A stretch of 64,000 bases of DNA from a virus. This document shows, in pieces, positions 5,600 to 64,000 of the stretch. Made by a program: the position numbers and the translations under genes. The notes beneath the pieces are model-generated. The model was not told where the DNA came from, searched no databases, and was given only the letters and a program-made list of their open reading frames with translations. The DNA is taken from positions 40,214 through 104,213 of IMG/VR virus record IMGVR_UViG_3300031521_000027, one strand, 5' to 3'. The first letter of the stretch is position 1. The number at the start of each line of letters is the position of its first letter.

Positions 5600-8500
5600 T
5601 GACCATCCGCATCTCGAACACCGTCTGGGTCACGGTCAAGCCCCCGGTCCCGCTGGAGAACACCGGCTGGGAGTTCGTGATCCTGAGCCCGGACGACTGG
5701 GCCACCGTCATCGCGCGGATCAACACCTTCTCGGACATGTCCTACGGCGACTCCTCCGCCGAGCAGGGCTCTGGGTCGATCACCCTTGACGCGGGCGCTC
5801 CCGTCCTGACCGAGCCCCTGCCGTCGGGTATCGCGGGCACGATCCTCGACCGTGAGTACCTGTGGAAGGTCTACGAGAACGGAGCCTTCCGGGGCGAGTG
5901 GCTCGGGCAGGATGTCGAGAAGGACGTCGTCGCAGGTGAGGACGGCGGTGAGCAGGTCACCATCGCTGGGCAGGGCACCCTGTCCGTCCTCCAGTGGGGC
6001 GTCATGGTCCCGATGCTGGCCTTCGATGATGAGGCCCTGACCGATGCCTTCGTGTCCAAGGACTTCCTCGGGGTGCACGCAGCGACTGCTCTGGTGTGGC
6101 TGATCGGCCACATTCAGGGTCGCGGGGGACTCATGTTCCTCGACCTGACATTTGACGAGTACACGGACTCCAAGGGTCAGCCGTGGACCGACCTTCAGGA
6201 CGTCAGCGTTAGCCCCGGAGAGACCCCTCTGGACCTCCTCCAGAGGTTCTCTGACTCCTTCGGGTGGGAGTTCACGATGATGGAGGGCTTCCGGCTCTTC
6301 ATCTCGCAGGATTCCGTCGGCTCCCACCGGGAGTCGGAGATCAAGTTCTTCATCGGCGGAGACCAGAAGAGTCACACCTACAAGTCCTCCACCCGGACGA
6401 TTGCCAACCACATCTACACCCCGGCTGCCGACGGCTCCATGGCCACCGCAGTGGGCACCTCCGACGCCACCCCGCACATCCGTGAGGGCTGGGCTGAGGG
6501 TGGCAGCGAGACCTCCGCAACGGCAGCGGCAGCCGTCGCTGAGTCCAACCTTGAGATGTTCCAGAACAAGCTGGTGGGACGGACCCTCTCCATCGTCGCC
6601 CGCGAGGGTCGGATCCCCTTTGACGACTTCGGGATCAACGACTGGGTCACGGTCGAGAACGGCGACAAGGACCCCGTCACGGGTGAGTACCAGACCGAGG
6701 TCGTGCAGGTCTCCAGCCTCAGCATCGGGATCAACTCCAACACCGAGGTCACCTACGAGCTGACCGTGATGACCAAGTTCGAGACGGTCGCGCTCCGGCT
6801 CACCCGGCTGCTCGACAAGATGGGAGGCTCGGCGCTGGGAGGCACCTCCTCCACCCCGATCTCCTCCGGCAGCGAAGCACAGGCCACCGTCGCCTTCGCC
6901 CTGCTCAAGGACGTGCACCTCGCCTCCGCGCTGGGTGGGGACGTCCTGACCTACTCACAGGCCGGGGGAGTCTTCCCCGTGACACTGGGGCTCGACTACC
7001 TCAAGGACGTCGACACCGCCACGGTCGCTCCCGTCTCCGGGCAGGTCCTGAAGTGGAACGGCATCCAGTGGGTCCCCGGCGTCGGCGCAGCTGGCCCCAC
7101 CACTCTTGCCACCCAGACGGACGTCACTGTCGTCGGGCTGGCCAACGGTCAGGTCTTGGTGTGGAACTCCACCACCGGCAAGTGGACCCCCGCCACGCCA
7201 TCGTCCGGAGTCACCACGCTGGCAGCCCTCACTGACGTGATCACCACCGGGATCGCCTCCGGCAAGGTCCTGACGTGGAACGGCACCAAGTGGGCCCCGG
7301 CAACCCCCGCCACCGTGATCACCGCGCTCGCGGGCTTGACCACTGATGTGGACACCACCGGAGCTGTTTCCGGAAAGGTGCTCGCCTACAACGGCACCAA
7401 GTGGGTGCCCACCACCCCGACAGGTGGAGGCACCACCGCCCTCGCTGGCCTCACCACCGACGTCGACACTTCCGGAGTTGTTTCCGGAAAGGTGCTTGGC
7501 TTCAACGGCACCAAGTGGGTACCTGTCTCCCAGACAGGGGGCGGAGGCGCACTCCCCATAGGCGGCGCTGTCGGAGACGCCCTCCGGAAGAACTCGGTCA
7601 CCGACGGGGACGCCCTGTGGACATCCGGAGGGGTGTTCTACGAGAACGGCTACACCCCCGGCAAGACGTACCTGCCCGGCCAGATCATGCTCCGCAACGG
7701 GATCCTCTGGTTGTGTGTCACCTCGAACATGACCGACCCGTTGAACTCCGGCTCGGCGAGCACCACCACCGGGGTCGACGGCACCGCCTTCACTCGGAAC
7801 AACTGTGCATCGGTGGACACCACCAACCATGTGGTCACCCTGATCAACAACGCGGGCAGTGCTGTCGCCTCGGTGATCAGCAACGAGACCTTCATATTCG
7901 CCACCCCCCTGACCCTGAAGTGGCGAGGCAGCACCACTACTGTGGCGGACGCCCTTGCCATCGGCATCGTCTCCTCCACCCAGTCAGCCACGGTCGCGAC
8001 CACCGTGGAGGCCCTCCCCTCGTTCTACGGGGTGGTGTGGGACGTCTTCAACAACCTCCTGAAGTGCTACGTCGCAGGGGTCGTTCTGGCTGACACCATG
8101 GCGCTGGCGTCCGACACCAACGACGACGTCTGGGAGATCCGGTACGCCGCCACTTCGATCAGCCTCTACTCCTCAGCGGGTCTCCTGATCAAGACGTGGA
8201 CGGTCGGCAACTACGCCGCTATGGGAGCCACCTTCCGACCGGCTGCGGGAGCCCGCACAGGCGGCTCCGCTGGAGTCTTCAAGATCTACGGGTCCCCTGT
8301 CATGCCGGGCACCGCATCCGACTGGGTCTCCGTCGGCAAGGCCGTTGTCGGTGCTCCGGCCACGGTGGTTCAGCCCGTCGCCATTGGCGACCTCGTCACA
8401 GCTAGTGCCACAGGGACGCAGTACACACCGACCGTCGTGGGAGTCACGGCAGCCACAGTCATTGACGCCAACCCAGCCAATCAGGCCAGCAACGCTTTCG

Positions 8501-10311
8501 ACGGCAACTCGGCCACCTACTGGCACAGCACCAACGCGATGCCCCAGTGGATCGCCGCTCAGTTCTCCGCCATCGCCAAGGTGGTGTCCGTCTCGATCCG
8601 CATCTACACCTTCTCGGCCAACCGCAGCCCCCGAGACTTCATGATTCAGGGGTCGAGCGACGGCACCACGTGGGTGGACCTGACGACCTACACCGGCATC
8701 ACGTGGCTCATCGGACAGACCCAGTCCTTCGCGGTCACCACAACGACCGCCTACCTCCACTACCGGATCTACATCAGTGCAAGCAACGGCGACAACTACC
8801 AGACCATCCCGGAGATCGTCTTCACGGCAGCGATGCCGGGGGCCACCACGCTTCCTGTGGCAGCTACGGCGGGCAAGGTCTTGACCTCCGACCCCACCGC
8901 AGCTACGGGGATGAAGTGGGATACCGCCACAGGTGGTGGGGCATCCACCCTTGACTCCCTCACCGACGTCGCCACCGCTGGAGCTGTTTCTGGAAAGGTG
9001 CTGGGATACACCGGCACCCAGTGGGAGCCAGTCACCCCCTCAGGTGGCAGCGGAGGCAGCAGCGATGGGATGAAGGCTGTCTGGACGAAGAGGCTGGACG
9101 CGTCCGGGATGGCCGACCTCACCGGGTGGACATCGCGCTCAGGCACGTGGACCTCCGGTGGTGCGTATGGCGTGAACCAGACCTCAACCTTGCAGGACAG
9201 CTGGCTGGAGTTCAACACCGATCTGGGGGTCAAGGCCCGTGCGGTGCAGTGCACCGTCCGGATCACCGCCGACGGGACCGGGCTCGGCGTCGGGTTCTAC
9301 TCCTCCGGAGCGTGGGCAGCTGGCGGGCTGGGTATCGGTCTCCAGCGGGCAGGCGCAGTGTCCAAGATCTGGTGGGACAGGTACGGGGTCGGGGGCTCGA
9401 CGTTCACGATGGCGACATCACTCGCGCTGGACACCGACTACGTCCTGTCGGTCTACCAGTCCGTTGTGCTCCCCACTCTGTTCGACGTCTACGTCGACCA
9501 CGTCTATCAGGTCACGATCACGGCTGCCGGAGCAGTCAACACGGGGCGGGTCGGTCTCTACTCGCGGACGGAGACCGGATGGATCCGCAACGTCACTGTC
9601 TGGACAGGCGAACTGTCCGGGTCGAATCCCGAGACCCCCGTGGTTGCCCCAGCCGCTGGAATCGGCGACCGCCGCTGGAACGTCCCGGTTGGCTGGACGT
9701 CCTTTGATGAGTTCAACAACGCCTCACTGGACGCCGCGTGGGTGCGAGTCGACAAGTCGGGAGGCACCGCCCGAGCGGTCTGGACTGAGGCTGCTGACGT
9801 CCTGTCTGTGTTCAACAACGGAGAGGACGCAGCCTCCGAACTGCACGCCATGATGCGCCCCCTGTCTGGTGTGGGGGGAAGTCTGATCGCCGGAGACGCG
9901 TTCGTGACCCACCTGAGCCTGAACGGCTCTAACGGCGCTTACGTCATGGGGGGACTCGTCCTCGCCGACGGAGTCACATCGGGGGCTGGAACCCAGCTCA
10001 TCACGCTGTCGTTCACCAACAATGGGGCCCTCAGCGTGGATACCCGAGTGATGACGAACTATCAGGTAGCCGGGGCGCAGTCCACAACGGTTGGGTACCC
10101 CCATGGTCCGCTGTACGAGCGGCTGGTCTTCCTTGGGGGTACTACGTGGCGGACAGACATCTCTCCTGATGGAGTGTCGTGGGTGCCCGGGACCACCGTG
10201 TCGTGCGCGATCACCCCCACCCATGTCGGGGTGCACTGTTCCTCGTGGGGGAGTGGGATCAAGGGAGTCTCGTCGTACGAGTTCATCCGGCGTGTGGCCG
10301 GAGTGACCTGA
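5599..10311 (+). CDS. Large tail tip / receptor-binding protein (1570 aa)
   Basis: N-terminal Tal-like region, internal LxDV...GxVLxWNGTxWxP repeats, F5/8-type C (discoidin)-like AFDGNSATYWHS...PQWI...IQGSSDGTTW, lectin-like C-terminal regions. Confidence 0.8.
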   Translation: MTIRISNTVWVTVKPPVPLENTGWEFVILSPDDWATVIARINTFSDMSYGDSSAEQGSGSITLDAGAPVLTEPLPSGIAGTILDREYLWKVYENGAFRGEWLGQDVEKDVVAGEDGGEQVTIAGQGTLSVLQWGVMVPMLAFDDEALTDAFVSKDFLGVHAATALVWLIGHIQGRGGLMFLDLTFDEYTDSKGQPWTDLQDVSVSPGETPLDLLQRFSDSFGWEFTMMEGFRLFISQDSVGSHRESEIKFFIGGDQKSHTYKSSTRTIANHIYTPAADGSMATAVGTSDATPHIREGWAEGGSETSATAAAAVAESNLEMFQNKLVGRTLSIVAREGRIPFDDFGINDWVTVENGDKDPVTGEYQTEVVQVSSLSIGINSNTEVTYELTVMTKFETVALRLTRLLDKMGGSALGGTSSTPISSGSEAQATVAFALLKDVHLASALGGDVLTYSQAGGVFPVTLGLDYLKDVDTATVAPVSGQVLKWNGIQWVPGVGAAGPTTLATQTDVTVVGLANGQVLVWNSTTGKWTPATPSSGVTTLAALTDVITTGIASGKVLTWNGTKWAPATPATVITALAGLTTDVDTTGAVSGKVLAYNGTKWVPTTPTGGGTTALAGLTTDVDTSGVVSGKVLGFNGTKWVPVSQTGGGGALPIGGAVGDALRKNSVTDGDALWTSGGVFYENGYTPGKTYLPGQIMLRNGILWLCVTSNMTDPLNSGSASTTTGVDGTAFTRNNCASVDTTNHVVTLINNAGSAVASVISNETFIFATPLTLKWRGSTTTVADALAIGIVSSTQSATVATTVEALPSFYGVVWDVFNNLLKCYVAGVVLADTMALASDTNDDVWEIRYAATSISLYSSAGLLIKTWTVGNYAAMGATFRPAAGARTGGSAGVFKIYGSPVMPGTASDWVSVGKAVVGAPATVVQPVAIGDLVTASATGTQYTPTVVGVTAATVIDANPANQASNAFDGNSATYWHSTNAMPQWIAAQFSAIAKVVSVSIRIYTFSANRSPRDFMIQGSSDGTTWVDLTTYTGITWLIGQTQSFAVTTTTAYLHYRIYISASNGDNYQTIPEIVFTAAMPGATTLPVAATAGKVLTSDPTAATGMKWDTATGGGASTLDSLTDVATAGAVSGKVLGYTGTQWEPVTPSGGSGGSSDGMKAVWTKRLDASGMADLTGWTSRSGTWTSGGAYGVNQTSTLQDSWLEFNTDLGVKARAVQCTVRITADGTGLGVGFYSSGAWAAGGLGIGLQRAGAVSKIWWDRYGVGGSTFTMATSLALDTDYVLSVYQSVVLPTLFDVYVDHVYQVTITAAGAVNTGRVGLYSRTETGWIRNVTVWTGELSGSNPETPVVAPAAGIGDRRWNVPVGWTSFDEFNNASLDAAWVRVDKSGGTARAVWTEAADVLSVFNNGEDAASELHAMMRPLSGVGGSLIAGDAFVTHLSLNGSNGAYVMGGLVLADGVTSGAGTQLITLSFTNNGALSVDTRVMTNYQVAGAQSTTVGYPHGPLYERLVFLGGTTWRTDISPDGVSWVPGTTVSCAITPTHVGVHCSSWGSGIKGVSSYEFIRRVAGVT
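6900..7530 (+). repeat. Tandem ~37-codon fibre repeats in the RBP (one more copy near 8950-9040)
   Basis: Repeated peptide L(A/K)xLTDV...SGKVLxWNGTKWxP; near-identical DNA at 7321-7410 and 7438-7525. Confidence 0.85.
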
Positions 10312-10535: not shown

Positions 10536-10554
10536 GGTCAGGAGGAATAATCCC

Positions 10555-12285
10555 TTGCCACTCAACTTTGACGTCCGGAACTTCACCGAAGCTCGCCGTG
10601 AGCAGCTCGCGTGGAGGATCCACCAGTCCGTGAACTGGAAGCTCCCGCCCCTGAAGGTGTGGAACTACGACCTGTGCCGCATCCATGCGCGCGGGTGGGT
10701 CGAGGAGATCCGTGACACCGACGGTGAGGTCAAGACCCACACCGTCTACGACCGGCCCAAGCCCGGCTGCCGGGACTGTGGGATCCACTTCCGCAGGCAC
10801 CAGCACATCGGGGTGGCGTGGCTCTATTTCAAGAAACACGCCCTGCTGGCTGACACCATGGGATCGGGCAAGACCACCGAGGCTGGCGGGCTGATCGCCA
10901 TGCTGATCGAGACCGGGGAGCTGTCCCTCTTCCGTGACAGATCCAGCGCCCACGGTGGCAAGGGTCGAGTCATCATCGTGCCCCGGTCCCCCGCCCTCCA
11001 CCAGTGGCGCACCGAGCTTCTCCGGATGATGCCCAGCCTGAACATCCTCGTCTCCGAAGGCACCCGCAAGCAGCGCACCCAGTTCTACCTCCAGCCGTGG
11101 CAGGTCCTCCTGATCGGGCCTGAGATGCTGCGCAACGACTACCAGCTGCTGGAGAACTTCGACCTCTCCCTCTTCCTCACCGACGACATCGACGCCCTCC
11201 GCAACCCCACCACCGAGACCTCCTACGTGCTGGACCGGATGGGTGCCCGGGGGGTCGAGGGCCTGCGTCCCGGCACCGACCGCTACGTCATCATGACCGG
11301 CACCCCCCTCCAGAAGCGCCTGCCCGAGCTGCACGCGGTGCTGGACGGCATCGGGGGCACCCTCGCGCTGGGCAGCATGGACTCCTTCGTCCACCGCCAC
11401 GTCCGCAAGGCCACCATCACCGAGTACGACCGGAAGTCAGGCAAGGACATCCGCAAGGAGGTCGTGGTCGGCTACCGGGACCTCGGTACGGTCAAGGCCC
11501 GGATCGCCCCGCTCGTGCTCCGCCGCACCGCCGCCGACCTCGACGACGTCGACCTGCCCACGATCATCCCCAACGACGTCATGCTCGACCTCTACCCCGT
11601 GCAGCGGGCCAAGTACACCGAGCTGCGCAAGGGCGTGCTGAAGATCATCCGCGAGGAGGGCACGCAGGTGAAGCGCCCCAACGCGCTGGCCAAGATCCAC
11701 TACGGTGCGGCCATCTGTGCAGGGCTCGCCGCGCTTGGGGAAGAGGACGGCCCCGGGACCAGCGTCAAGCTCGACTGGGTGGTCAACCAGCTCACCGAGG
11801 GTGGGCTCAGCGAGCGCGGCGAGAAGGTGGTCGTGTTCGCCAACCTGAAGAACACCGTCAGGGCCCTCCAGATCCGGCTCAAGGAGGAGGGTGTGGGCTT
11901 CGTCACGGTGTGGGGGCAGGAGAACGACAAGGTCAAGCGCGCAGCCTCACAGGAGCGGTTCTGGACCGACCCGAAGTGCAAGGTGCTGATCGGCACCAAG
12001 GCCATCGAGCAGTCCCTGAACCTTCAGGTCTCCCGGCACCTCGTCAACATTGACATGATCTTGAACCCAGCGAGAATGGAGCAGTTGGCCGGACGTATTC
12101 GCCGCGACGGCTCGGCCTTCCAGCACGTCTACGTGCACAACCTCCTGACCATCAATACGCAGGAGGAGAAGTACCTCCCCCTGCTGGAGCGTGAAGCAGC
12201 GCTGGCCGCGCACATCTGGGACGAGGATTCCCAGCTGTTCACTGCCCTCTCACCCTTGGCCCTTCTACAGCTCATTTCCGGATGA
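10555..12285 (+). CDS. SNF2-family SF2 helicase/ATPase
   Basis: ADTMGSGKTT Walker A, MTGTPLQ motif III, LRRT, SLNLQ, NPARMEQLAGRIRR motif VI; TTG start after AGGAGG (alternative GTG at 10534). Confidence 0.85.
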   Translation: MPLNFDVRNFTEARREQLAWRIHQSVNWKLPPLKVWNYDLCRIHARGWVEEIRDTDGEVKTHTVYDRPKPGCRDCGIHFRRHQHIGVAWLYFKKHALLADTMGSGKTTEAGGLIAMLIETGELSLFRDRSSAHGGKGRVIIVPRSPALHQWRTELLRMMPSLNILVSEGTRKQRTQFYLQPWQVLLIGPEMLRNDYQLLENFDLSLFLTDDIDALRNPTTETSYVLDRMGARGVEGLRPGTDRYVIMTGTPLQKRLPELHAVLDGIGGTLALGSMDSFVHRHVRKATITEYDRKSGKDIRKEVVVGYRDLGTVKARIAPLVLRRTAADLDDVDLPTIIPNDVMLDLYPVQRAKYTELRKGVLKIIREEGTQVKRPNALAKIHYGAAICAGLAALGEEDGPGTSVKLDWVVNQLTEGGLSERGEKVVVFANLKNTVRALQIRLKEEGVGFVTVWGQENDKVKRAASQERFWTDPKCKVLIGTKAIEQSLNLQVSRHLVNIDMILNPARMEQLAGRIRRDGSAFQHVYVHNLLTINTQEEKYLPLLEREAALAAHIWDEDSQLFTALSPLALLQLISG

Positions 12286-13028
12286 AAGCAGTGACAATGA
12301 CCGCCGCCACCCCCGTCCCCCTCTCCGACTACCAGAGCGAGTTGGTCAGGACCCACGTGGGCCTTGCCCAGAGCATTGCAATGTCTTTCTGGAAACGAGC
12401 CGCATCGGAAGTGGACCGCGACGAGATCGTGGCCATCGCCTATCAGGGGCTGATCACCGCCGCCCAGAGGTACGAACCCAACATCGTCCCGGAGAACGAC
12501 CCGGACGTGGCGCTGCCCCCTGTTGCACTGACGTTCGGCCAGTACGCCAAGCGCCGCATCGGGGGAGCCATTCAGGACTGGATGCGCCAGCTGGACCACG
12601 TCCCCCGCAGGCAGCGCACCATCTACAAGGACATGCAGGAGCTGGCCCCCGGCAGGAGCCCTGAGGAGACCGCAGAGATCCTCGGGATCGACGTCAACCG
12701 GGTCCGTGCGATCACCCACGCAGTCGAGTGCCCCCCGGTCTCACTGGACGACATGGCAGGCGACAGCGACCGGGGCAACATGGCTCCCCCAGCTGAGGGA
12801 GGCACCGAGGGATCAGTCGCAGCCCACATGCTTCAGGAGGCCATGGTCGAGGTCATGGAGGGGATGCCGTCGTTCGAGAAGTCGGTCATCGTCCTGCGGT
12901 ACTACATGGGCATGAGCTTCCCCCAGATCGCCGCCGAGCTGGGCTCCAGCGTGTCCACCGTCAAGGTCACCCACCAGCAGCAGATCCTGCTGATCCACGC
13001 CGCCATGGTCCAGACTGCGCGCTCCTGA
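12282..13028 (+). CDS. Group 3 (FliA/WhiG-like) RNA polymerase sigma factor
   Basis: GLITAAQRYEP, TFGQYAKRRIGGAIQDWMRQLDHVPR, PVSLD, VIVLRYYMGMSFPQIAAELG. Confidence 0.9.
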   Translation: MKAVTMTAATPVPLSDYQSELVRTHVGLAQSIAMSFWKRAASEVDRDEIVAIAYQGLITAAQRYEPNIVPENDPDVALPPVALTFGQYAKRRIGGAIQDWMRQLDHVPRRQRTIYKDMQELAPGRSPEETAEILGIDVNRVRAITHAVECPPVSLDDMAGDSDRGNMAPPAEGGTEGSVAAHMLQEAMVEVMEGMPSFEKSVIVLRYYMGMSFPQIAAELGSSVSTVKVTHQQQILLIHAAMVQTARS

Positions 13029-13533: not shown

Positions 13534-14986
13534 ACACTCCCAGATCGTCCTCTCGGCCATCTTGGCGGGCAGGCGCGATCTGCTGGAGAAGGCTGTCGCC
13601 CACCTGACGCCAGCCCACTTCCCGGAGAAGGTCCACGCCGACCTCTTCACCATGCTCATGCGCTTCTCGGACTACACCGGGGGCGCGGTCATGCCGCTGA
13701 AGTACCTCGACGACAACCTCCGTGGCCGCATGGAGCCGGGCAAGGCTCAGCTGTTCACCGAGACCTACGAGATGCTGTCGGAGACCACGACAGAAGATTC
13801 TGAGTTCGCGTGGTCCCTCCAGCAGCTGCGCGAGCTGGCTGCCGACAAGACCACAGGCGAAGCCCTGACTGAGGCCATGGAGATCCTGCGCCGAGGCAAG
13901 ACCATCGACAACCAGACCTATCAGGGCCACAACGATGCCCGCGCTCGCCTGCTGGAATCGTTTCAGGAAATCGACCGTGAGCTGGTTCGGCAGGACGCGC
14001 CGGAGGGGGACCTCGCAGACGAGGCCACCGAGATGAAGGCCGACTACGCCGAGCGGAAGAACGCGCGCCTCAAGGGTGTGTCCTCCGGCATCCGGTTCGG
14101 CATCGACGAGCTGGACCGCAAGATCGGTGGGCTCCAGCCGGGAGAGCTGGTGCTGCTCGCGGGCTACTCCAGCGACGGCAAGTCCTCCCTGTGCGTCCAG
14201 CTCGCGTGGAGCGCCGCCGTGGAGCAGGGACAGAACGTGGTCTTCCTGACCACCGAGACCCTGCGTCCCCAGATCCGCCGCAAGATCATCGCCCGCCACT
14301 CCAAGCTGCCGATCTTCGAGACACCCGAGGGCCTTAACACCCGGGATCTGAAGGCAGGCACCTTGACGGATGAGCAGGAACTCATCCTCCCCCGGGTGAT
14401 CGACGACCTCGCCAAGAACCCCGCCTACGGCAAGATCTACATCGCGCAGGTCCCTCGGGCGGCAGGCATCGCCAGCATCGAGCAGAGGCTGCTGCGGATC
14501 CAGCGGAAGTTCAACATCAAGCTGGTCATCGCCGACTACCTCGCGCTGCTGATCGCCGAGCGCAGACGCACCACGGCCCGGGAGGAGTACGCCGAGGTGC
14601 TGAAGAACGCCAAGCTCCTGTCGGTCGCCTTCGACAACGGGCGGGGAGTGGCCTTCGTGTCCCCGTGGCAGGTCTCCAGACAGCACAGGGAGGCCGCAGA
14701 GAACCTCGGGCAGTACACGTCCGCCGCGCTCTCCGAGACGGCTGAGGCGACGAACTCCTCCGACGTGATCGTCAGCCTGCTGGCCCCCACCGACAACACC
14801 GACCGGCACGCCGACGTCACCTTCCAGATCCTGAAGAACCGGGACGGCGAGACGGCCAACGGCATGATCGTCGAGGTCGACTACGCCACCTGTCACTTCC
14901 GCAGCAAGCGGATGCTGGGAGCCCTCGGTACGGGTGGTCTCGACTACTCCACCAACGGCACCATGGAAAGCCTGCTGAGCGCCTGA
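13517..14986 (+). CDS. dnaB: DnaB-like replicative helicase
   Basis: GIDELDRKIGGLQPGELVLLAGYSSDGKS, VIADYL, WQVSR, ILKNRDG; TTG start after GGAGAG (alternative 13505). Confidence 0.92.
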   Translation: MASASEHSQIVLSAILAGRRDLLEKAVAHLTPAHFPEKVHADLFTMLMRFSDYTGGAVMPLKYLDDNLRGRMEPGKAQLFTETYEMLSETTTEDSEFAWSLQQLRELAADKTTGEALTEAMEILRRGKTIDNQTYQGHNDARARLLESFQEIDRELVRQDAPEGDLADEATEMKADYAERKNARLKGVSSGIRFGIDELDRKIGGLQPGELVLLAGYSSDGKSSLCVQLAWSAAVEQGQNVVFLTTETLRPQIRRKIIARHSKLPIFETPEGLNTRDLKAGTLTDEQELILPRVIDDLAKNPAYGKIYIAQVPRAAGIASIEQRLLRIQRKFNIKLVIADYLALLIAERRRTTAREEYAEVLKNAKLLSVAFDNGRGVAFVSPWQVSRQHREAAENLGQYTSAALSETAEATNSSDVIVSLLAPTDNTDRHADVTFQILKNRDGETANGMIVEVDYATCHFRSKRMLGALGTGGLDYSTNGTMESLLSA

Positions 14987-48153: not shown

Positions 48154-48345
48154 GGCTGTTGCCCTTCCTTACGGGTACCGGGTTGTTCCGGCTTGATGTC
48201 TCAAGTTTAGGACACACTGCCACTCGATGTCAAGCGAAACTGGCAGGAGTTATTTTCGGAAACGAGTTGACACACGTCCCAAGGTAGGTACATAATAGAG
48301 ACATAGCCGGACGCACCGGCTCCTCGAAAGAGAAGGGCATAAGCC

Positions 48346-49341: not shown

Positions 49342-49511
49342 GGCTGCTGCCCTTCGGTTGTTGTTCCGGCTTGATGTCTCAAGTATAGTACACGTGCGCG
49401 CGTATAGCAACTCGTTTCCAGAAAAAGATTGATCGAGTATTCGCTTGACACTAGCTAGGTACATGCCTTAAACTTGAGACATCAAGCCGGATCAACCGAA
49501 GGGCACCAGCC

Positions 49512-53243: not shown

Positions 53244-53331
53244 AGTTTTCGGAAACAGTTGACACAAGGTAGGTACATGCCCTAAACTTGAGACATCAAG
53301 CCGGAACAAACCACACCGAAGGGCACCAGCC

Positions 53332-56300
53332 ATGGACATCACCACTCCCGAGAACATCACCGTCGAGAGCTTCACCTCCCCCGTCCTCACCGGCAGGGAC
53401 CAGCGCAGCCTCAAGGCGTTCGTGCTCGCAGGCATCCTCCCCAACGGTGACCAGCACCGGGTCAGCCTCACGGTCAGCCACGACGCCGACCGCAAGTCCT
53501 TCCGTGTCAGCGTCAGCCGCTACACCCGGGAAGCCAGCACGGACCACGGGTTCGTCGTCGAGCACTACGCCCTCATGGAGGACATCGCATCGCTGGGCGG
53601 GATCAAGGTCGCCCGGTACAGCTTCAAGGCCCTGAACGCCACCTTCCTCGACGCTCTCCCGGTCGCGGTCGCAGCCCTCAAGGATCAGCTGGCTGACTTC
53701 CTGCTCACCCCGACCACGGCCCGCTGATCATGAAGAGCGGCATCGCACTGATCGTGCTGGGCGTTCTCCTGCTCGCCACTGGAGTCATCACTCCCGGCCT
53801 GCTCGGGATCTCCATGGGCCTCCTGATCGCCATCAAGTCCAAGGCCACCCACCGGGTGCCCGTGGTCCCCCATGCTCCGCAGCGGATGATCCAGCCGCAG
53901 GAGCAGGCACCCATGGACTGGAGGGTGGCCCTGTCTGACGTACGCACCCACGTGAAGGACACCGGGTGCCTCGTGCGCAGGAGCGACTTCGAGAGCAAGA
54001 ACGGGTTCTGCCCGAACGGGGGGAGCTACTGGGAGCACGACTGATCCAGACCCAAGAGCACTCGGCTTGTTTCTCGAAAGAGTTGACAGGTCGAGTGCTC
54101 TGTCCTATACTTGAGACATGAGCAACGGTATCAGCGGTCAACCAGCCACCCCCTACAAGCACACCTTCGCCACCGGCACCGAGTGCTACAGGGCCCGTGC
54201 AGCAGCCATCCGCAGGGGTGAGTCCGTGAGTGGGGCCCACCGCACGAAGGAGACCTTCTGGTTCAAGAGCAACGTCAAGGACTGAACAGCAAGAAGCCCC
54301 CGACTCCACAGTGAGTCGGGGGCTCTGCTATGCCCGGGAGGGAGGGGGGAAGATTCTGAGCCTCCCCAGCGGGATCACACCGTGGGTTCGACGGGCGGCT
54401 CCTGCGGATCGGCGGCGTTGGCGGCGGTGTCCAGTGCATCTGCCGACCCGGTCAGCGTTGCGGTGATCGCGTCGATGTCAGCCTGCTGGAGAGTGCCAGC
54501 GTCGAGCTTGGCCTTGAGGTCTTCGAGTGCGGCGATGGCTTCCTGTACCTCCGAGGAGACACGGGTAGCTGCGGCTTGCAGGGCTTCGAGAGCGGCCATG
54601 ATGAGATCCAGCTTTCTGTCGATGGAGTGTGGGTAGTCGTGATGGACGTGGACGTGGATTGTCGCCACTTGTGCGCCCCTCTGGGTTGAAGTGCAGGGAG
54701 TCCCGCAGGCATCACGCTACAAGCACTCACAGTGCGGCTGGCAAGGAGCAAACTTGCCCCAAAGTCGTTTCGACTTGTTTCTCAAAACAGTTGACAACCA
54801 GTGCCCAATGACCTAAGCTAGGTACATAAGCAAGAGAGAGCCCCGAAGGGCACTGGCAGCAAGGCACGGATGCTGAGCTGGAACCCTGAGACTGATCAAC
54901 AGCGCAGGGTGCAGAGCGAAGGGGCTCTCTCAATATCGAGGAAGGCTCCTCCCCATGAACATCCAGTTCACCTGCCCCCAATGCGGGCGGATCGAGAACA
55001 TCGCCACCGCAGTCCACACGTTCCCCTCCTACTCCAAGGCCGTCACGGTCATCTGCTCCACCTGCACGGAAGGCAAGTAGTCATGAGCAACACCCTCCCC
55101 CCGGCCCTGATCAAGGCCATCGACGCCAAGTTCGTCACACTGGGCACCCAGCTGGACGAGGCACGCGCCATGCTGAAGGAGGGCAGGTACGCCAACACCA
55201 AGAACTCCCGCCGCCAGCTCATGCAGAGCATCCAGTACCTCGAAGCCCGGTTGGCTGGCCAGCTGGACATCATGCAGCTCACCCACAACTTCACTGCACA
55301 GGCCCTCACACGCGAGGAGCTGTACCACGGCACCGGCTTCGCTCCCGGCGCGCTCTTCATCCAGATCAACTGATCCAACACTCACGGCCCGTGTTTCTCG
55401 AAAGAGTTGACACGGGCCTCTGTGTGTCCTAAGATAGAGACATGAAGTTCATTGCTGGCGGAATCGCCCTGTACGCGCTGGGCCTGTACCTCGCATCCAC
55501 CCACTTCGGCGGATGGGCGTTCCTCTGCCTGATCGTCGGCACCATCCTGATCCTGAACGCACACGAGTGATCGAGGCACTGGTCGTCGCCCCCACCGTCT
55601 CCCTGATCGGGATGATCGTGTGGGGCATCGTGTACGCCGTGCTCGACGCCATCGCCCCCCACCTACCCACAACAAGATTCTGAAAAGGAGCATCACCATG
55701 GTCTTCGGTATCCCCGCCGCTGTGCGCCTCACCATCGTCGAGGCCATTGGCCCCTTCGTGATCATCGAGGTGGGCAAGAGCGACATCGCACCCGTGCGCT
55801 TCTACGCAGAGAACCGGGACGTCACCCCTGCCGTCCGGCTGAACAACGGCCTGCTCACCTTCGAGGACGCACGCCTCGCCGTGTGCGATGCACTGGAGAC
55901 CTACGCACGCGCCCTGAAGGCTGAGCGCAGCTGCACGTGTGGGGCGCACGAGTACCGGGGCTGCTTCTGCAACCTCACCGTCGCCGAGTTCATGAAGAGC
56001 CCGCACGCAAAGAGCATCTAGGGCTTGACTCTAGCTAGGTACAGTCCTATACTAGAGACATGAGCACAGCAGTCCTCACCCGTGAAGCACCCCGCATGAC
56101 CCGCACCCAGCACGACGCGACGTGTGAGCTGATCGAGGCAGGGGACTGCGAGTGCGAACGACTCGGACTCATCGTCATCGTCATCATCAAGGAAGGCAAG
56201 TAGCCATGACCACCATCACTCCCCTCACGGACGCCAAAGACCTCATCACCTACTCCAAGATCCGCTGCTACGGCGTGCTGGGCGGCACCTACGTCGCCCT

Positions 56301-57426
56301 CGTGAACAACATCAGCGTCGAGCGCGACAAGGTGACCATCTGGGTGCAGCTGGACGACGACAAGGGCACTTCGATGCCCACCATCGTGTGCGCTCCCGAC
56401 ACGGGCATCGAGGTTGTCGAGGCTCCCGATCTCACGCCCTACGGGATCGTGCAGGAGTTCATCCGCCTCGCCCGCATCCAGTGGAGTGACGACGTCGAAG
56501 GTGCAGCTGCTGAGGCTGTGCTGGACGGTCTGGAAGCCCGGCTCCCCCAGATCCTCCAGCGCCAGAACGAGCTGAAGGCGAACTCATGAGCCGCCTGTCG
56601 GGGGAGTGCATCGACTCCCCCAAGGACCCCTGCGAGGGCTCGGTGGAGTACCGCACTGCACTGAGCCCCTCGGGCAAGATGTTCCCCCGGTGTGACAAGC
56701 ACTGGGCAGCGCGCCTGAAGGTGCAGGAGGGCATCAACGCCCGCTACCCCGAGCGCCAGCCTGCTGACTTCGATCCGCTGTACGCAGGCGAGCAGTGGGA
56801 TGAGGACTGAACATGATTCTGAGGGAGGCAACGCCGTGATCTACCTGTACTGCCCTGAGTGCGGCAAGAAGGGCGTGACGCTGCACATCCGCGCCGTCGA
56901 TGACTACTACGGCTGCCGCTACTGCAACTTCGAGTTCTACACCCATGGCACGGACAGGTTCGACCGGCAGGCAAGGGCAGCACTGGCTGTGCGCAACCCG
57001 GGCTTCAAGGTCTAGGGTCTTGACACAAGGTAGGTACATGGCCTAAGCTAGGTACATACCCACCAAGGAAGGGCAATAGCCATGAGCACCATCACCGCAG
57101 AGCTGGTCGAGAAGAACGCCAAGATCCGCATCTACCCCTTCAACGACAGGGGCAGCTCTGAAGGCGTCGTCTTCAGCAAGGACGACCTCTGCGAGACCAT
57201 CGTCATCTGGTGCACCACCCTCGGCAACCCGGACGGCGTCCGCATCGAGTGCGACCCGTCCACCACGTTCGAGGTCATCGAGAAGGCACCCACGCAGATG
57301 ACCATGCCCGAGCTGGTGCGCGAGTTCGCATCCATCCGGGTCCAGATCGCCCTTGATCAGCCCCACTCCCTGCGCCGCCTGTGGCTCATCGTTGCTGAGC
57401 TGAAGAGCCGGGGTGCCCTTGACTGA
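53332..57426 (+). other. Early single-promoter gene cassettes (53332, 53730, 54118, 54955, 55083, 55442, 55698, 56060, 56206, 56586, 57082)
   Basis: ORFs at leaderless or RBS positions behind repeated promoters. Confidence 0.65.
54375..54668 (-). CDS. Leftward coiled-coil protein with His-rich N-terminus
   Basis: IHVHVHHD then Ala-rich heptads; AGAGGG RBS on the minus strand. Confidence 0.65.
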   Translation of the reverse strand: MATIHVHVHHDYPHSIDRKLDLIMAALEALQAAATRVSSEVQEAIAALEDLKAKLDAGTLQQADIDAITATLTGSADALDTAANAADPQEPPVEPTV

Positions 57427-58480: not shown

Positions 58481-61400
58481 AGGACCACATGAAGAAGGCT
58501 GAGGACGCGCTGGAGGCTGCTGCTGAGCCCGGGACGTACCGATCCGACGTGCTGGTTCTCCAGTACGCCTTGGCACAGGCAGAGGGCACCCTTGCCGTCG
58601 CGCACGAGCTGCGCCTGCTCAGGGAATCCATGGAGGGGCGCTGATGGGCAAGCACGACATGAGCCAGCTGCGCACTGAGACGGGATGCACCGCCTCTGTG
58701 TGGTACCAGCACCCCGAGATCGGGGAGCGTCCTGTGGGCGTCTACCTGCGCCTTGCCATGGACGAGAACCTGCCCAATGGGGTGCGCTCTGCTGAGCTGC
58801 GCCTGACCGAGATCGAGGCCATGGAGTTGGCCAAGAACCTGCTGGAAGCAACGAAGGGAAGCATGGAATGAGCAAGCTCTACAAGGTAGGCATCACCATC
58901 ACGGAGGTCGAGACCGAAGAGGTCAACAGGGACCGCTACGACAAGGTCACCACGTCGGGCAGGAACGCCACCACGGTGCTGCTGGAGGGCACCTATGCAC
59001 TGGACACCATCCAGAAGATGGCAGCCCCTCAGATCGTCACGAACTTCCTGCTGGCGCTCGCGGGCGATGGCACGGGCGACCTGCTGAGGGGGCTGTGATG
59101 GCACATCCCGGGATCAAGGTCTTGACCGACGAGATCGCTAAGACGACCAAGCTGCGCGACGATGCCACCACGCACGCCGAGCACGCAAGGGCCAGCGCAC
59201 GGGCATGGGAAGAGGCTGTCCCGCGCCACCAGAAGCACATCGACGAGCTGGCTGAGGCACTGATCGTGCTGAAGAAGGCGCTCTGATGGGTGCCATGGGA
59301 GTCATGTACTACGAGGTCCAGTGCGACCACGTCAACCCTGAGGGGGTGCGCTGCGCGACCAAGACGTCCGATCTGGGCCATGACTTCAGCGCGTGGGCCG
59401 ACCATGGGCAGGCACTGGACGACTGGCTGAGCCACGATGGCAGCTACGACGAGAAGACGGGCGAGACGTTCTGCTACGACCACATCCCGAAGTGCGCTGG
59501 CTGCGGCATCCTGTTGGTCGACGAGGAGCATGAGGACGACTGCCCCACGTGGGTGAAGGACCCGTACAACGCGAAGGCGCTGCTGGACGGCAAGCCGGTG
59601 GACTCATGAGCGACGAGCTGCTGGGCTACACCGAGATGGACGGCGACATCGTCACCCATCTCGCGCCTGTGCGGGACGTGGATGGGCCGAAGAACCTGAG
59701 GGTCGTGGCGCTGTGCCACAACATCCTGCCGAGGAGCCGCTACCAGCTGGGTCGACTTGAGGTCGACTGGAAGCAGGCTGAGGCCACCTACAAGAGCGCC
59801 ATCGAGGCGCGCACCCACTGGCTGCACCAGAAGGGGCTGTGCCGGAAGTGCTGGGTACGGATCGACGCCTTGGCACGCCGGGAGCAGAAGGACGCAGGGC
59901 CGAAGCATGACCTGTCCGTGGTCGAGCTGTTCGGGGAGCCGCACCGCAAGGTGACCTTCGAGGTGAAGGACGCTTGACGCTAGGTAGGTACATGGCCTAT
60001 CCTAGAGACATGATTCTGAGGAGCAACTGATGGGCAAGGCCGACGGCTACACCGGCACCTTCAAGAGGGCCACGGCGAGTACCTCCGACCTGACCCTGTG
60101 CTTGGGCGACCTGCGCGAGCTGGTGGTGCACACCGAGGGCATGGGGGATGCGGCCATGGTGACCGTGTCGGCGCTGTCCCAGTCGCACACCACCGTGGGC
60201 GAGTGCTACCTGAAGCGCCTGTGGGTGCGGGAAGAGCAGGTGGACTGATGGGCGCGATCTTCCCGGGCATCGAAGCCAAGTACCGGAACCTGTGTCAGGA
60301 GTTCGACCCCGAGAGCGGCTTCGCCTGCGACTACCCGCGTGGGCACGTCCCGCTCAGGGTGTCCAAGGCGAGTGGGGTGCTGGAGTACGCCCATGGCAGC
60401 CAGCGTGGTCAGGTGTGGTGGGGCCCTGTTCCTGCCGTGCCGCTGTACCCGGAGCCGCCTGTGGAGAAGACCCACCGTGAGAAGGCGCAGGCGGCACTGA
60501 GGGTCGCCCTGACCCCTCGTGCTGCCACGTCCACGGAAGCGCCGGGCACCCAGATCATGATGCTGATGGGCATCGGTGAGGCCTTGCTGGCGCTCGAAGA
60601 GACCATCCGTACCCGGTCAGAGCCCGACCTCTCCGACGAGCACGTTGCTACGACGCTGAACTCCATGCTGACAAGGGACGATGAGCCGGGCCCTGTGGTG
60701 GGCTGCAAGAGCGTGCGTGACGGCAAGCTGCCCTGCCCGGAGCGGTTCAACAGGGGTGAGCGCGCAGAGGACCGGGCCCGGTGGTGCCGGTTCTGCAAGG
60801 CGACTGTCCCGGACTACGACCCGAAGCCCCGGAACTACGAGCAGGAGAGGGGCTTCTGATGGGTACCCCGAGCACGGGCGTCTGCAAGCACTGCGGAGGC
60901 CAGATCTACTACGACCTGAAGGCCACCTACATCGGTGGGCCGAAGCTGCTGCGCCCAGAGATGGCCGGGATGGACGCGTCCTCCAAGCACCTCGGGCCTG
61001 CGGAATGAGGGCTGCCCACCTGCGGCTGGTGGAGGAGAACCAGATCCCAGCCTCCATCGCCGATCTGGCCGAGGTCGTGCAGCGCGCCGTGGAGGTACGC
61101 ACCGACTGGGAGGGCCTCCAGCTGACCGTGATGCGGGACGGCTCCATCACCTACGACATTCAGGAGAAGAAGGAATGAACGACGAGGAGTACGCCGAGCT
61201 GGCCGATGAGGTGGGCCGCGAGATCGTGGCCGCACTGGAAGCCGCAGGCGAGTACCGGATGCTGTCCTTGCTGGGCACTGCGCCGGGCACGTTCCGCACG
61301 GTGGCCGACGCTGCGATCCGGACCACGCTGGCATGGCGGGACGCTCAGGAGCCGGGCATCTGGGACACGATTGGGCCCAACCTTGCCCGCATCGCCGACG

Positions 61401-62153
61401 CACTGGAGAGCCCGATTGCACCCGTTCAGTCAGGTCGGTGTGGCGCGTCGATGGACGAGGCCATCGGCTTCCGGACGGGTCCGCACAGGGAGAACCTCTG
61501 CTGCGTCCTGCGGGCAGGCCACCGTGGCTGGCACCTTGAGGGCGAAACCGAGTGGAGCAACTGATGGCTGTGGAGAAGCACGAGTACGTCCCGAAGCCGC
61601 GCTGGACCGCAAGCCCCTGCCAGTACAGGCTGCCCCACGGATACGCCTGCATGATGCCCAGCGAGCACGCGATCCACCAGACCTTCGAGCAGATGGTGGC
61701 CGAGTTCGAGGCGGAGTTGGCCAAGCGGGACCGGCTGCTCATGCACGCGGCGTGGGATCTGGGCTGCGACTTCGCGGTGCGTCACCCGGACATGAACGCC
61801 GAGTACTTCCGGTCGGCCAACCCCTACAACGATGTTTCTGAGGAGACCCCGTGACTGCCCCCTACCTGAAGCTGGCCGAAGCTCCGACGCTGACGATCCG
61901 CAGCCCTGACTGCAACGAGTGCGCCGTGGAGGTCACCTCCGACGGTGACGGCTGGATGTGCCTTGTCTGTGGCACCCAGTGGGACTACGACGACGGGGAG
62001 GACACCCCGGGCACCTTGTACGAGGAGTGGTCCGGCGAGTCGCTGGAGGGCGTTCCTCTGCCTCCTGACGTGGCATGGCGCGTGGCCCTCATGCCGAACG
62101 CGTCCGAGCGTCAGGCCAAGGCCGAAGAACTGGTGAAGAAGGAGCTGTCATGA
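58477..62153 (+). other. Run of small coupled hypothetical genes, many Cys/His-rich
   Basis: ATGA/TGATG overlaps at 58477, 58644, 58868, 59286, 59606, 60248, 60859, 61175, 61564, 61851. Confidence 0.65.
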
Positions 62154-62896
62154 GCGAGCCGATCCTGACCACGCTGGCGGGCTCGCACGCCCACGGCATC
62201 AACACCGAGGCCTCCGACTTCGACTACGTGTCGGTGACCATGGCCCCGCTGGAGAGCACCCTCGGGATCGCCCCTGAGGTGAAGACCAAGATCGAGCGGG
62301 ACGCCCCTGACGGGACGCGCGCCGCTGCCGGGGACGTCGAGCACACCACCTACGAGCTGCGCCACTTCCTGAAGCTGGCCACGCAGGGCAACCCGAACAT
62401 CCTCGTGCCACTGTTCTGCGCGCCGGAGCACATCACCCACATCACCAGCGCCGGGATGGGTCTGCGGATGCTGGCCCCTGCGGTCGTGTCGATGCAGGCC
62501 GTCCACCGCCACCTTGGCTATCTGGACGCCCAGTACGGGCGGATGCGGGGGATAGGTCCCCATCAGTCGCGCAAGCCCAGCAGGCCCGAGCTGGTGGAGG
62601 CCCACGGGTACGACACCAAGTACGCCGCGCACGCCCTGAGGCTCGCGTGGCAGGGCATCGATCTGGCCTGTTTCGGGAAGATCGTGCTGCCGATGCGCCT
62701 GACCGAGCAGAAGACCCTGCTGGCGATCCGTGCAGGTCACTGGGAAGAGGCCAAGGTCTGTGAGGTCATTGAGCACAACCGGGACATCCTGCGCGACCAC
62801 GTCAACGGGGTCCTCACCTCCAAGCTGCCCGAGCACCCCGACTACGACGAGATCAACCGCTGGCTGATCCACATCCAGAGGGGACCGCTGAAGTGA
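62150..62896 (+). CDS. Pol-beta-superfamily nucleotidyltransferase (RlaP/YcgL-like)
   Basis: GSHAHG.NTEASDFD, YELRHFL.L...GNPN, GYDTKYAAHALRL, LPEHPD. Confidence 0.85.
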   Translation: MSEPILTTLAGSHAHGINTEASDFDYVSVTMAPLESTLGIAPEVKTKIERDAPDGTRAAAGDVEHTTYELRHFLKLATQGNPNILVPLFCAPEHITHITSAGMGLRMLAPAVVSMQAVHRHLGYLDAQYGRMRGIGPHQSRKPSRPELVEAHGYDTKYAAHALRLAWQGIDLACFGKIVLPMRLTEQKTLLAIRAGHWEEAKVCEVIEHNRDILRDHVNGVLTSKLPEHPDYDEINRWLIHIQRGPLK

Positions 62897-64000
62897 AGAC
62901 GCACTACGCCCGGCAGGGGAGTGCCTCCGTTACGGCGTGCGGTGTGTACCGCGACGCCCCGAAGACGCACCACAAAAGGTCGGTGTCCTGCCTGCGCTGC
63001 CGAGGAACCCATGTCTGGAAGTCGGACGCGTACAAGGAGATGAAGTGAGCGACGAGGAACGCACCTACCTGCCGATCAGCGGGTTGACTGGGGAGAAGAT
63101 GGAGACCCCGCTGGACGAGGATCTCGCCGACGTGCTGATCCGGATGGTCGTGATGACCCCGCTGGAGCACCACCCCGACGTGCAGCGCGTGCTGGCCCGC
63201 TACCGGGTCTCGAAGGGACGGAAGGCATGACCACCCGGTTCCGTCGTGGGAGCAAGGCTCCCGGCCAGCAGGTGAACTGGCACATCGCCGTGCAGGACTA
63301 CAAGAAGGGCGAGATCTACCGGCGCTACCTCGCTCTGTGCGGCTACGAGATCAAGATGCCGTGGGCGACCCGCGCCGAGACCCAGCTCAGCCGCGCCAAG
63401 CGGGTGGACGGGCCGAAGTGCCAGAAGTGCATCAAGAAGCTGGCCGAGGAGACATCGTGACCGATGAGGTCCAGCGCTGCCAGATCGAGGCTCACCCCAA
63501 GACCGAGCACTACCACATCGTCGCCAGCGACGGCTGGGTCATGCCTGCCGGTCAGCACTCCACCCTCCCTTTGGACCGAGGCAAGATCTTCGGCCCTGTT
63601 TTCACGAAAGGACGTATTCGATGACCCTGTTGAGCAAGCCGGAGGGCCTCACCTGCGAGGCTCCCAGCCACAGGTTCCCTGAGCACGGAGACCGCCCTGC
63701 TGCGTTCATCTACGGGCCCGAGTGCGAGCTGGAGACGGGCAAGCTGATGTACCTGTGCAAGTGGCACGCCAAGGCCATCGCTGACTGGATCGCCTCCAAC
63801 CCGAACCGCCCCGTGGAGTGCCCGACCCACGGCATCATCGGCACGGTCAAGTCCGTCGTCGTCCTGAAGGAGATCTGATGGCCGAGCCTCTGACCTTCGC
63901 TGCCATCGAGACCATCTTCGGGGTGCCGTTCACCACGGGCCTGCGTGACGTGCTGTACGAGCGCGCCCACCATGCCCGCAAGGGCTACGACGCCGCCCAC
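62893..64000 (+). other. Small hypothetical genes (63044, 63227, 63457, 63621; last ORF from 63878 truncated)
   Basis: Overlapping starts and stops. Confidence 0.55.

Follow-up and report, generated by a model that had tools for sequence, protein, structure and literature searches.

The palindrome TTTCNNGAAA, made up of the arms TTTC and GAAA around a spacer of 2 nucleotides (nt), is dispersed through a phage genome, within as well as between genes, and at about a dozen early promoters it stands at a fixed distance from the -35 hexamer. It was analyzed in a window of 64,000 nt (the whole stretch of DNA under study), which corresponds to bases 40214 to 104213 of the 104,213-bp IMG/VR record IMGVR_UViG_3300031521_000027 (G000; 64.4% GC, estimated to be 84% complete). 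On balance, the palindrome is best explained as a dispersed operator with approximately 50 sites for one symmetric, probably dimeric DNA-binding protein encoded by the phage itself, a reading that we hold with moderate confidence and for which a 96-amino-acid (aa) protein encoded at 42790-43080 is the candidate binder.

Abundance and definition of the palindrome

A total of 24 exact copies of TTTCNNGAAA were found in the window, compared with 0.10 +/- 0.36 (maximum, 2) in dinucleotide-preserving shuffles, and the whole 104-kb record carries 35 copies, with 0.10 to 0.33 expected. The reversed (mirror) pattern AAAGNNCTTT has no copy in the whole record. Despite its AT-rich arms and a genome of 64% GC, TTTC-N2-GAAA is the commonest of all 256 palindromes of the 4-N2-4 form. 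Other spacers between TTTC and GAAA (0 and 3 to 8 nt) gave no more than one copy each, with none at 4 nt, while ten copies with a spacer of 1 nt all have one additional T or A (TTTTCNGAAA or TTTCNGAAAA). Together, the exact and spacer-1 copies account for 45% of the TTTC tetramers in the record. As all ten spacer-1 copies are also one-mismatch 10-mers, they were rejected as a separate class, and the register is therefore TTTYNNRAAA, which occurs 50 times in the record and 34 times in the window. Symmetrized counts widen the consensus weakly to t-G-TTTC-NN-GAAA-C-a (10 to 14 bp). The 35 exact copies stand against 38 with one mismatch (approximately 11 of these expected by chance), indicating a sharply defined motif. 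A literature search for the motif string matched no paper. A role at the RNA level was rejected by reasoning, since a DNA palindrome with a 2-nt spacer cannot make a stable hairpin.

An earlier description of the window, made from its letters by a model (the sequence-only reading), had listed 22 exact copies, every one of which was recovered at its coordinates; two more, at 1924 and 10827, were absent from that list. The 11 near variants that it gave also exist, and nine of them fit TTTYNNRAAA, counting the copy at 26249 at one mismatch. Those outside the pattern are at 39290 (TTTTAGAAAA, two mismatches) and 50873 (TTTACGGAAA, which fails at the Y position).

The genome and its relatives

Near-identical sequence is present in contigs of 24 peat metagenome sets. 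Almost all genes in the window lie on the plus strand. Tail genes occupy it up to approximately 10.3 kb, a replication block encodes an SNF2 helicase, a sigma-70-family protein, DnaB, a family A DNA polymerase, and a RecA-like protein, and from approximately 35 kb onward repeated promoters precede numerous small genes. Among named phages, Microbacterium phage Magritte (133 kb) is the nearest, with the same gene order and a polymerase of 48% identity. Three further IMG/VR records (G001, G002, and G004) are overlapping pieces of one relative, here called phage B, with 77 to 93% identity at the DNA level. Two other relatives were compared: G003, a complete genome of 127.9 kb with approximately 70% identity, and G005, with a GC content of 52% and a polymerase of 46% identity. 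No match to an integrase or resolvase (PF00589 and PF00239) was found in G000, in the complete G003, or in Magritte, and from this search the lifestyle of the phage looks lytic.

A fixed position at early promoters

The early promoter module consists of TTGACA, 17 to 18 bp, TAAGAT or a close variant, and then agagacATG, and is predicted to be a sigma-A-type promoter giving leaderless mRNA, as in Actinobacteria. Using the pattern TTGACN-N17-18-TANNNT, 19 promoters were identified in the record, many of them followed by agagacATG, and 10 carry the palindrome with a gap of 3 to 4 nt to the -35 hexamer. Two further motif-bearing promoters were read by eye, one on the plus strand at 48268 and one on the minus strand at 49376-49410, where the -35 hexamer is TTGCTA. 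The claim in the sequence-only reading that about twelve copies start 13 to 14 nt before a -35 hexamer thus holds. Numbered from the first base of the leaderless ATG (+1), the 10-mer spans approximately -49 to -40 and its center lies at -43.5 to -45.5. The spacing is held to the -35 hexamer (3 to 4 nt) and not to the -10 hexamer (20 to 22 nt), and the bases within the gap vary among promoters; the arrangement is therefore not merely the product of recent duplication. The palindrome is the sole AT-rich patch at its site upstream of the -35 hexamer, and the core elements of motif-bearing promoters are at least as good as those of promoters that do not carry it.

Exact copies on the plus strand lie 4 nt upstream of the -35 hexamer at 35680-35689 (TTGACA; early leaderless promoter with its ATG at 35729; center, -44.5) and 37252-37261 (early promoter; ATG at 37302), and 3 nt upstream of it at the early promoters of 39817-39826, 51025-51034, 54070-54079, and 55394-55403, the last three of which are leaderless and the last of which is identical in phage B. 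On the minus strand, the exact copy at 47609-47618 is 4 nt upstream of TTGACG in an early promoter, and that at 49415-49424 is 4 nt upstream of TTGCTA as well as 20 nt upstream of a plus-strand -35 hexamer at 49445. The variant TTTTCGGAAA takes the same position on the plus strand at the early promoters of 40780-40789 (4 nt) and 53246-53255 (3 nt); at 48253-48262, it lies between divergent promoters, with the plus-strand -35 hexamer at 4 nt and that of the minus strand at 22 nt. The variant TTTCTCAAAA at 54778-54787 (plus strand) is 3 nt upstream of its -35 hexamer, and phage B has the exact TTTCTTGAAA there.

Outside the early promoters, no hidden promoter was detected, as an alignment of 28 non-early copies revealed no conserved column within 70 nt on either side, and these copies have no fixed relation to the late-type motif GGCCGATCTTC or the middle-type motif GCGTACCAGT. 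A composite-promoter reading of the non-early copies was rejected on these grounds. With no conserved neighbor and no tie to other motif classes, the palindrome therefore stands alone and is associated only with early promoters of the sigma-A type.

Two side observations concern the early promoters. The three genes at 46875-48153 are on the minus strand of a genome that is otherwise one-directional; they belong to no Pfam family and lie behind early promoters of their own strand at 47604 and 48233. In several early promoters (49445-49475, 53259-53290, 56025-56055, 57020-57050, and 59974-60005), the spacer between the -35 and -10 hexamers is filled by another repeated element, (c)TAGGTAGGTACATGg, which could represent either a duplication of the -10 region or an additional operator.

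Copies within genes

Genes were called with a simple GC3-based method, which was applied to 45 copies (35 exact and 10 spacer-1). Twenty-nine of these lie in coding sequences; every reading frame is used, and the peptide contexts are many (for example, F-P-E, V-S-G-K, and F-x-K). When synonymous codons were shuffled within each gene (500 shuffles), the mean number of copies was 0.71 and the maximum was 3, compared with the 29 observed. The motif is present at 29 of the 93 peptide contexts that permit it. The codons that it needs are rare in this genome (TTT, 3.1% of Phe; AAA, 2.3% of Lys; GAA, 12.6% of Glu), in agreement with the earlier statement that the copies force AT-rich codons into the genes that hold them; a check of the gene identities covered tail fiber, SNF2 helicase, sigma factor, DnaB, and PolA.

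In the tail region, an exact copy at 1924-1933 falls in the gene for a 304-aa protein, in the F-P-E frame, and three exact copies lie in the gene for a 1,570-aa tail fiber protein, at 7367-7376, 7481-7490, and 8987-8996, one in each of three V-S-G-K repeats. Within the replication block, exact copies were found in the genes for the SNF2 helicase (10827-10836; the sole copy also kept in the approximately 70% identical G003), the sigma-70-family (r2+r4) protein (12386-12395), the DnaB-like helicase (13961-13970), and the family A DNA polymerase (20361-20370; GC-rich codons in G003), and the variant TTTTCGGAAA was found in a 96-aa gene at 18107-18116; the last four of these are kept in phage B. 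Further downstream, exact copies lie 32 nt inside the gene for a 179-aa hydrophobic protein (28864-28873; kept in phage B), a putative holin in the sequence-only reading, within a coding region at 44882-44891 (kept in phage B with a different spacer), in a 130-aa gene (50081-50090), and in a gene for a histone-deacetylase-domain protein (52599-52608). The variant TTTCCGAAAA, of the TTTCNGAAAA type, is located at 33083-33092, near the 3' end of the gene at 32680-33144.

Copies close to genes or between them include the best palindrome of the window, an exact copy at 26221-26230 (14 bp including its flanks) that is intergenic, follows the RecA-like gene, and is kept in phage B. The variant TTTTTAGAAA at 26249-26258 is 28 bp from it in the same intergenic region. 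Another variant of the TTTCNGAAAA type, TTTCAGAAAA at 30511-30520, is approximately 12 nt upstream of the gene starting at 30533, and the two-mismatch variant at 39290-39299 is upstream of a ribosome-binding site. The exact copy at 41507-41516 has an ATG 9 nt downstream and is identical in phage B; that at 63600-63609 is 11 nt upstream of the ATG at 63621, where GAAAGGA overlaps the likely ribosome-binding site.

An origin of the copies by chance, by base composition, or as a by-product of repeated peptides could draw on the three copies in one repeated tail fiber peptide, V-S-G-K. All three tail fiber repeats able to encode the motif do so, however, and they do so by way of the rare codons GTT and GGA. 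Given also the excess of copies in the window (24, with 0.1 expected) and under synonymous shuffling (29, with 0.7 expected), and the use of three frames and many peptide contexts, such an origin has a negligible probability and is already refuted. The tail fiber protein itself (5599-10311) contains at least five copies of the peptide repeat ...TDV.T...SGKVL.(Y/F/W)NGT(K/Q)W.P.

The density of copies is approximately 1 per 2.5 kb in the structural region, 1 per 2.7 kb in the replication region, and 1 per 1.7 kb in the early region, and their spacing is somewhat more even than random (coefficient of variation, 0.72 versus 0.97; P of approximately 0.01). Copies outside genes are overrepresented three- to fourfold in all four phages, and 11 of the 30 non-early copies lie between -60 and +140 from a gene start, compared with 5.8 expected (P of approximately 0.02).

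Conservation and turnover in related phages

Phage B keeps the motif at all 18 alignable copies, with variation in the spacers and flanks. Third-codon positions within the motif are identical in phage B in 46 of 47 cases, compared with a background of 77%, so that the conservation at synonymous sites in relatives, which had been set beforehand as a check on the sequence-only reading, was borne out. Among further phage B copies that could be aligned to the window (locus L028), the motif is kept at six of seven places, and in the reverse comparison 14 of 17 and 11 of 14 copies were common to both phages. These figures, with the codon shuffles, show that the intragenic copies are kept by selection on the DNA itself rather than on the proteins.

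G003 has the motif at only one of 13 orthologous places, the helicase copy at 10827. At the places where it is lost, G003 uses GC-rich synonymous codons, and third positions are 39% identical, compared with a background of 61%. Even so, G003 itself carries 18 copies, and 11 of these fall outside called genes. Retention in phage B together with turnover in G003 shows that individual sites are held firmly in the short term and gained or lost in the long term, with their presence and number being maintained. In Magritte, no 10-bp form was found, and an 11-bp form, ATTTC-N-GAAAT, occurs in six copies, compared with 0.08 expected. Four of the six are intergenic, and one lies 4 nt upstream of a -35 hexamer (TTTCAGAAA-N4-TTGACG).

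As a side observation, a second palindrome, ATTGCAAT, is overrepresented in G003 within GACAATTGCAATC (12 copies, compared with 0.05 expected). It was found at loci L019 to L025 (for example, at record positions 5140, 8925, 14060, and 95280), several times near copies of TTTC..GAAA.

A candidate binding protein

A total of 49 proteins were scanned against Pfam, approximately 25 of them early, and most of the early ones have no family. Among the genes common to G000, phage B, G003, and Magritte, the 96-aa protein encoded on the plus strand at 42790-43080 is the only helix-turn-helix (HTH) protein recognized other than the two sigma-like proteins; it is also conserved in G005. Its fold model shows a 38-residue N-terminal helix followed by a C-terminal HTH (predicted local distance difference test [pLDDT] score, 83). 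The family to which it belongs is made up of small proteins of 70 to 110 aa (39 clusters at an E value of <=0.001).

The motif lies just upstream of the candidate gene in three diverged lineages, with three copies at the gene in G000, three in phage B, one in G003, and two in Magritte. Relative to the leaderless ATG, the centers of the G000 copies, all on the plus strand and all kept in phage B, are at approximately -83.5 (42702-42711, exact), -50.5 (42735-42744, the degenerate ATTCCGAAAA, which is ATTCCCAAAA in phage B), and +10.5 (42795-42804, the variant TTTCTCAAAA in codons 2 to 5). The +10.5 copy is retained in phage B despite two amino acid changes. Sites arranged in this way around a gene are the usual signature of an autoregulated DNA-binding protein, and on conservation and genomic context the protein at 42790-43080 appears to be the best candidate binder.

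Subthreshold profile matches of the candidate were obtained to RepB (PF07506; E value, 0.008; 16.8 bits with a cutoff of 30) and to the ParB-like phrog_2159 (E value, 0.002). A Foldseek search with the candidate fold returned nothing at an E value of <=0.001, and in a wide structural search Mu C, Mor, the KorB DNA-binding domain (Z score, 4.3), DeoR, and TrpR were all tied at Z scores of 4 to 5, so that the fold comparisons were not informative. Compared with PDB sequences, its profile gave a weak generic HTH match only, to a phage immunity repressor (8bny). Three scans of viral contigs for distant homologs found nothing, a metagenome scan found only two phage B loci, and tblastn against cultured phages found only Magritte.

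The sequence-only reading had named two possible binders within the window. The HTH protein at 42790 remains a reasonable choice, given its conservation and the upstream motif. The XRE-type protein at 44189-44470 was rejected, as it has no homolog in phage B, G003, or Magritte; since phage B carries the same sites, the XRE-type protein cannot be the shared binder. Its reading frame directly follows the ATPase gene and overlaps a longer frame at 44278-45288. No domains of a WhiB-type AT-hook factor or of Lsr2 were found in the record. Since the phage looks lytic, an immunity repressor would also be an unlikely binder. The ATPase encoded beside the HTH gene matches SMC_N, AAA_15, and AAA_23 as well as an OLD-family chain, and not ParA, and its gene has its own middle-type promoter motif.

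Other repeated elements and genes in the window

Three further promoter-like motifs were observed. The element A(A/T)GATTCTGA(G) is one-directional, with 19 copies on the plus strand and one on the minus strand (47649), ahead of the minus-strand genes. It ranges from 13794 to 60010 (for example, 37951, 42678, 44244, 44909, 45601, 53204, and 60010) and is often followed by GCG-N5-6-GCGCAG, and several copies are 17 to 32 nt from the palindrome. The motif GCGTA(C/T)(C/A)A(G/A)T, mostly GCGTACCAGT, has 12 copies genome-wide, with examples in the window at 10526, 13054, 14993, 19775, 29453, 32666, 43093, 45640, and 57471. It usually stands a few bases before the start codons of replication and recombination genes, including that of the ATPase beside the HTH gene, and looks like the -10 element of a middle promoter for a phage sigma factor. 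The motif GGCCGATCTTC has 10 copies at one mismatch or fewer, which precede genes for packaging and structure; most lie outside the window on its upstream side (record positions 11135 to 34967), and those within it are at 14307, 28197, and 30904. The motif is similar to GCCGAT, the -10 element of FliA-type sigma factors, which would fit the sigma-70-family gene at 12282-13028.

Several genes of the phage are unusual. One of them, that for the histone-deacetylase-domain protein (51972-53201), is also present in Magritte; the others encode a NADAR-domain protein (33144-33632), a nucleotidyltransferase of the RlaP type for RNA repair (62075-62896), and a protein like phage ProQ-C (36377-36793).

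Interpretation as a probable dispersed operator

A perfect palindrome that is base specific suggests a symmetric protein on double-stranded DNA. The sequence-only reading had proposed that one dimeric protein serves both the early promoters and the genome as a whole, and had linked the palindrome to parS; the stand-alone nature of the element, the selection at the DNA level, and the fixed position beside the -35 hexamer agree with the former, whereas the parS link fell away, as set out below. A dimer bound at -44.5 would abut RNA polymerase, at either sigma region 4 or the C-terminal domain of the alpha subunit. The bound protein would more likely damp or shut off early transcription than activate it; an activator seems unnecessary because the promoters already have a consensus -35 hexamer and a good -10 hexamer. 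Repression from an "activator" position is known for p4 of phi29 and for KorB. The approximately 30 promoter-distant copies, mostly intragenic and about one per 2.3 kb, would hold the protein on phage DNA. One possibility is that they form a reservoir, or titration buffer, that grows with the number of genome copies; another is a weak coating or roadblock along the entire genome. The 96-aa HTH protein would itself be autoregulated through the three copies around its own promoter.

A bolder proposal, which we put forward tentatively and consider rather unlikely, is that the distant copies are no remnants of regulation but a selected lattice, spaced more evenly than random, by means of which a minimal HTH protein without the CTPase of ParB marks the genome of this lytic phage, compacts it, or protects it.

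Several points weigh against a dispersed operator read by this protein. A homolog of the candidate is encoded in G005, which has no enriched palindrome and no intergenic space upstream of the homolog gene. Only approximately 7 bp separate the centers of the half-sites, a short distance for a classical HTH dimer, and the sharpness of the motif (35 exact copies, 38 with one mismatch) is unusual for a regulator site. A tightly bound protein in late genes should hinder transcription, and control of promoters does not explain the intragenic copies. The direction of regulation is a guess. Another binder is possible, given that 16% of the G000 genome is not in the record and that most of the early proteins have no recognizable domain.

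The palindrome could instead be bound by a host protein, such as a global regulator, a nucleoid protein, or the host ParB, with the phage having accumulated sites to recruit it or soak it up. This would be in keeping with the half-site tGTTTC, which equals the outer half of the widespread parS, with the company that the motif keeps with promoters of the host sigma-A type in three diverged phages, and with the mostly unannotated state of the early phage proteins. We nevertheless consider it unlikely, as spacing and sequence specific to a lineage, such as ATTTC-N-GAAAT in Magritte, fit a coevolving phage factor better and no copy has the 4-bp spacer of parS. Alternatively, the copies could be sites read by an enzyme for some other DNA transaction (Chi-like protection, recombination or replication starts, nicking, or modification), with the promoter copies being secondary. 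The sharp, restriction-site-like definition of the motif, its similar density across regions with spacing evener than random, and the apparent selection of each intragenic copy individually all suit such sites; next after the HTH gene, moreover, comes a gene for a RecF/OLD-like ATPase, and the phage also encodes an Mre11-like nuclease. The fixed distance of 3 to 4 nt to the -35 hexamer in approximately 12 promoters, conserved as far as Magritte, and the three- to fourfold excess outside genes would both be left unexplained, however, and neither a methyltransferase nor a site-specific nuclease turned up in the proteins that were scanned, so that we regard this explanation as quite improbable.

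At the promoters, the motif might be an UP-like element, a T-tract followed by an A-tract at -49 to -40, for the C-terminal domain of the host alpha subunit, with the intragenic copies being unrelated. The proximal part of the Escherichia coli UP consensus, ...TTTT-NNN-AAA-NNN, lies just upstream of the -35 hexamer, matching the position of the motif, and nothing else at that position is rich in AT. UP elements, however, are recognized via the minor groove, and exchanges between A and T are tolerated in them; in the motif, the C and the G are near-invariant and the mirror AAAG..CTTT is absent. Nor would an UP-like element account for 29 selected intragenic copies without adjoining promoter elements, and we regard it as very unlikely. 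A true parS/ParB-type system (of the KorB or Noc type), in which ParB, as a CTP-dependent clamp, is loaded at the copies and spreads from them, is more improbable still. It would draw on the resemblance of the half-site to parS, on the subthreshold RepB and ParB-like matches of the candidate, and on KorB operators, which likewise lie both beside -35 hexamers and far from promoters. Against it, no match to ParB_N (PF02195) was found in G000 (84% complete), the complete G003, G002, or G004, and the only one in Magritte (12.8 bits) is below the cutoff and in an unrelated frame. The 96-aa candidate is too small to hold ParB_N, the neighboring ATPase is of the SMC_N/OLD type rather than ParA, and there is no sign of a plasmid-prophage lifestyle. 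TTTC-N4-GAAA has 0 copies, compared with 35 of TTTC-N2-GAAA. A ParB encoded by the phage thus appears to be already largely refuted.

Comparison with known systems

The closest published analog is the 17-bp palindrome of Cluster O mycobacteriophages, TGTTCGG-NNN-CCGAACA, which has 34 copies with invariant arms, split among intergenic, 5'-proximal, and mid-gene places; their positions are mostly common to close relatives, with single-base losses (PMC4351075). A dimeric protein was proposed by its authors, who left the function open and judged a transcriptional role unlikely (PMC4351075). Both elements belong to actinobacteriophages and have invariant inverted arms, a free spacer, and tens of copies in and between genes that are shared among relatives. 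The palindrome described here differs in sequence, in its shorter arms (4 to 6 bp), in its occurrence in an unrelated, Magritte-like clade (approximately 104 to 133 kb), and in its fixed place beside the -35 hexamer at about a dozen sigma-A promoters. The present analysis, in addition, puts numbers on the selection at synonymous sites and proposes a candidate binder. By these comparisons, the palindrome is the same kind of element as the Cluster O palindrome and not the same element.

The KorB operators (OB) of RK2 are found both immediately upstream of -35 hexamers and far from promoters. The present system is similar in that one palindrome has sites of both kinds, which would give global control of a replicon by what is here a single candidate protein. 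Long-range silencing by KorB has been described (PMC11790492). KorB is, however, a CTP clamp of the ParB family, whereas no ParB_N was found here, the sites are four times more numerous and mostly intragenic, and the phage looks lytic. Tens of copies of a short site across a phage genome are also seen with the stoperators of Cluster A mycobacteriophages and the C1 operators of P1, systems in which the sites bind one phage protein that also controls an early promoter. Those sites are asymmetric (the stoperators being oriented with transcription), are mostly intergenic, and serve lysogenic immunity. In contrast, the palindrome is perfect here, most of its copies lie within genes, and neither integrase nor partition genes were found.

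Mor and C of phage Mu are small dimeric activators with an N-terminal dimerization helix and a C-terminal HTH, and the dyad that they bind is centered near -43.5, beside RNA polymerase. The site center of approximately -44.5 and the modeled architecture of the candidate (a long helix followed by an HTH) are similar. Promoters dependent on Mor or C have no usable -35 hexamer, and Mu has a handful of sites, none of them intragenic. The early promoters here, unlike these, have a consensus TTGACA, and the structures 1rr7 and 9l0x are only tied fold matches of the candidate (Z scores of 4.4 to 4.8, which are not significant). The element would thus function as a dispersed operator, while differing from ParB/parS and stoperator systems and probably also from the Mor/C system.

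Implications

The analysis adds to the known dispersed palindromes a quantified measure of selection at the DNA level on intragenic copies, acting against an extreme codon bias, and a fixed position relative to the -35 hexamer that is conserved across phages with polymerases of only 48% identity. It also adds lineage-specific turnover of sites at a maintained density, as well as a specific candidate, a tiny protein with sites flanking its gene. The cultured relative Magritte, with six copies of the 11-bp form and a homolog of the protein (gp154), makes the question testable at the bench. If the lattice proposal is true, a self-recognition or genome-organizing system would be written in the synonymous codon positions of the phage, and the dispersed palindromes of actinobacteriophages such as those of Cluster O would be given a function. 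A genome-wide role of the intragenic copies away from promoters, if true, would represent a new means by which a lytic phage organizes or marks its DNA.

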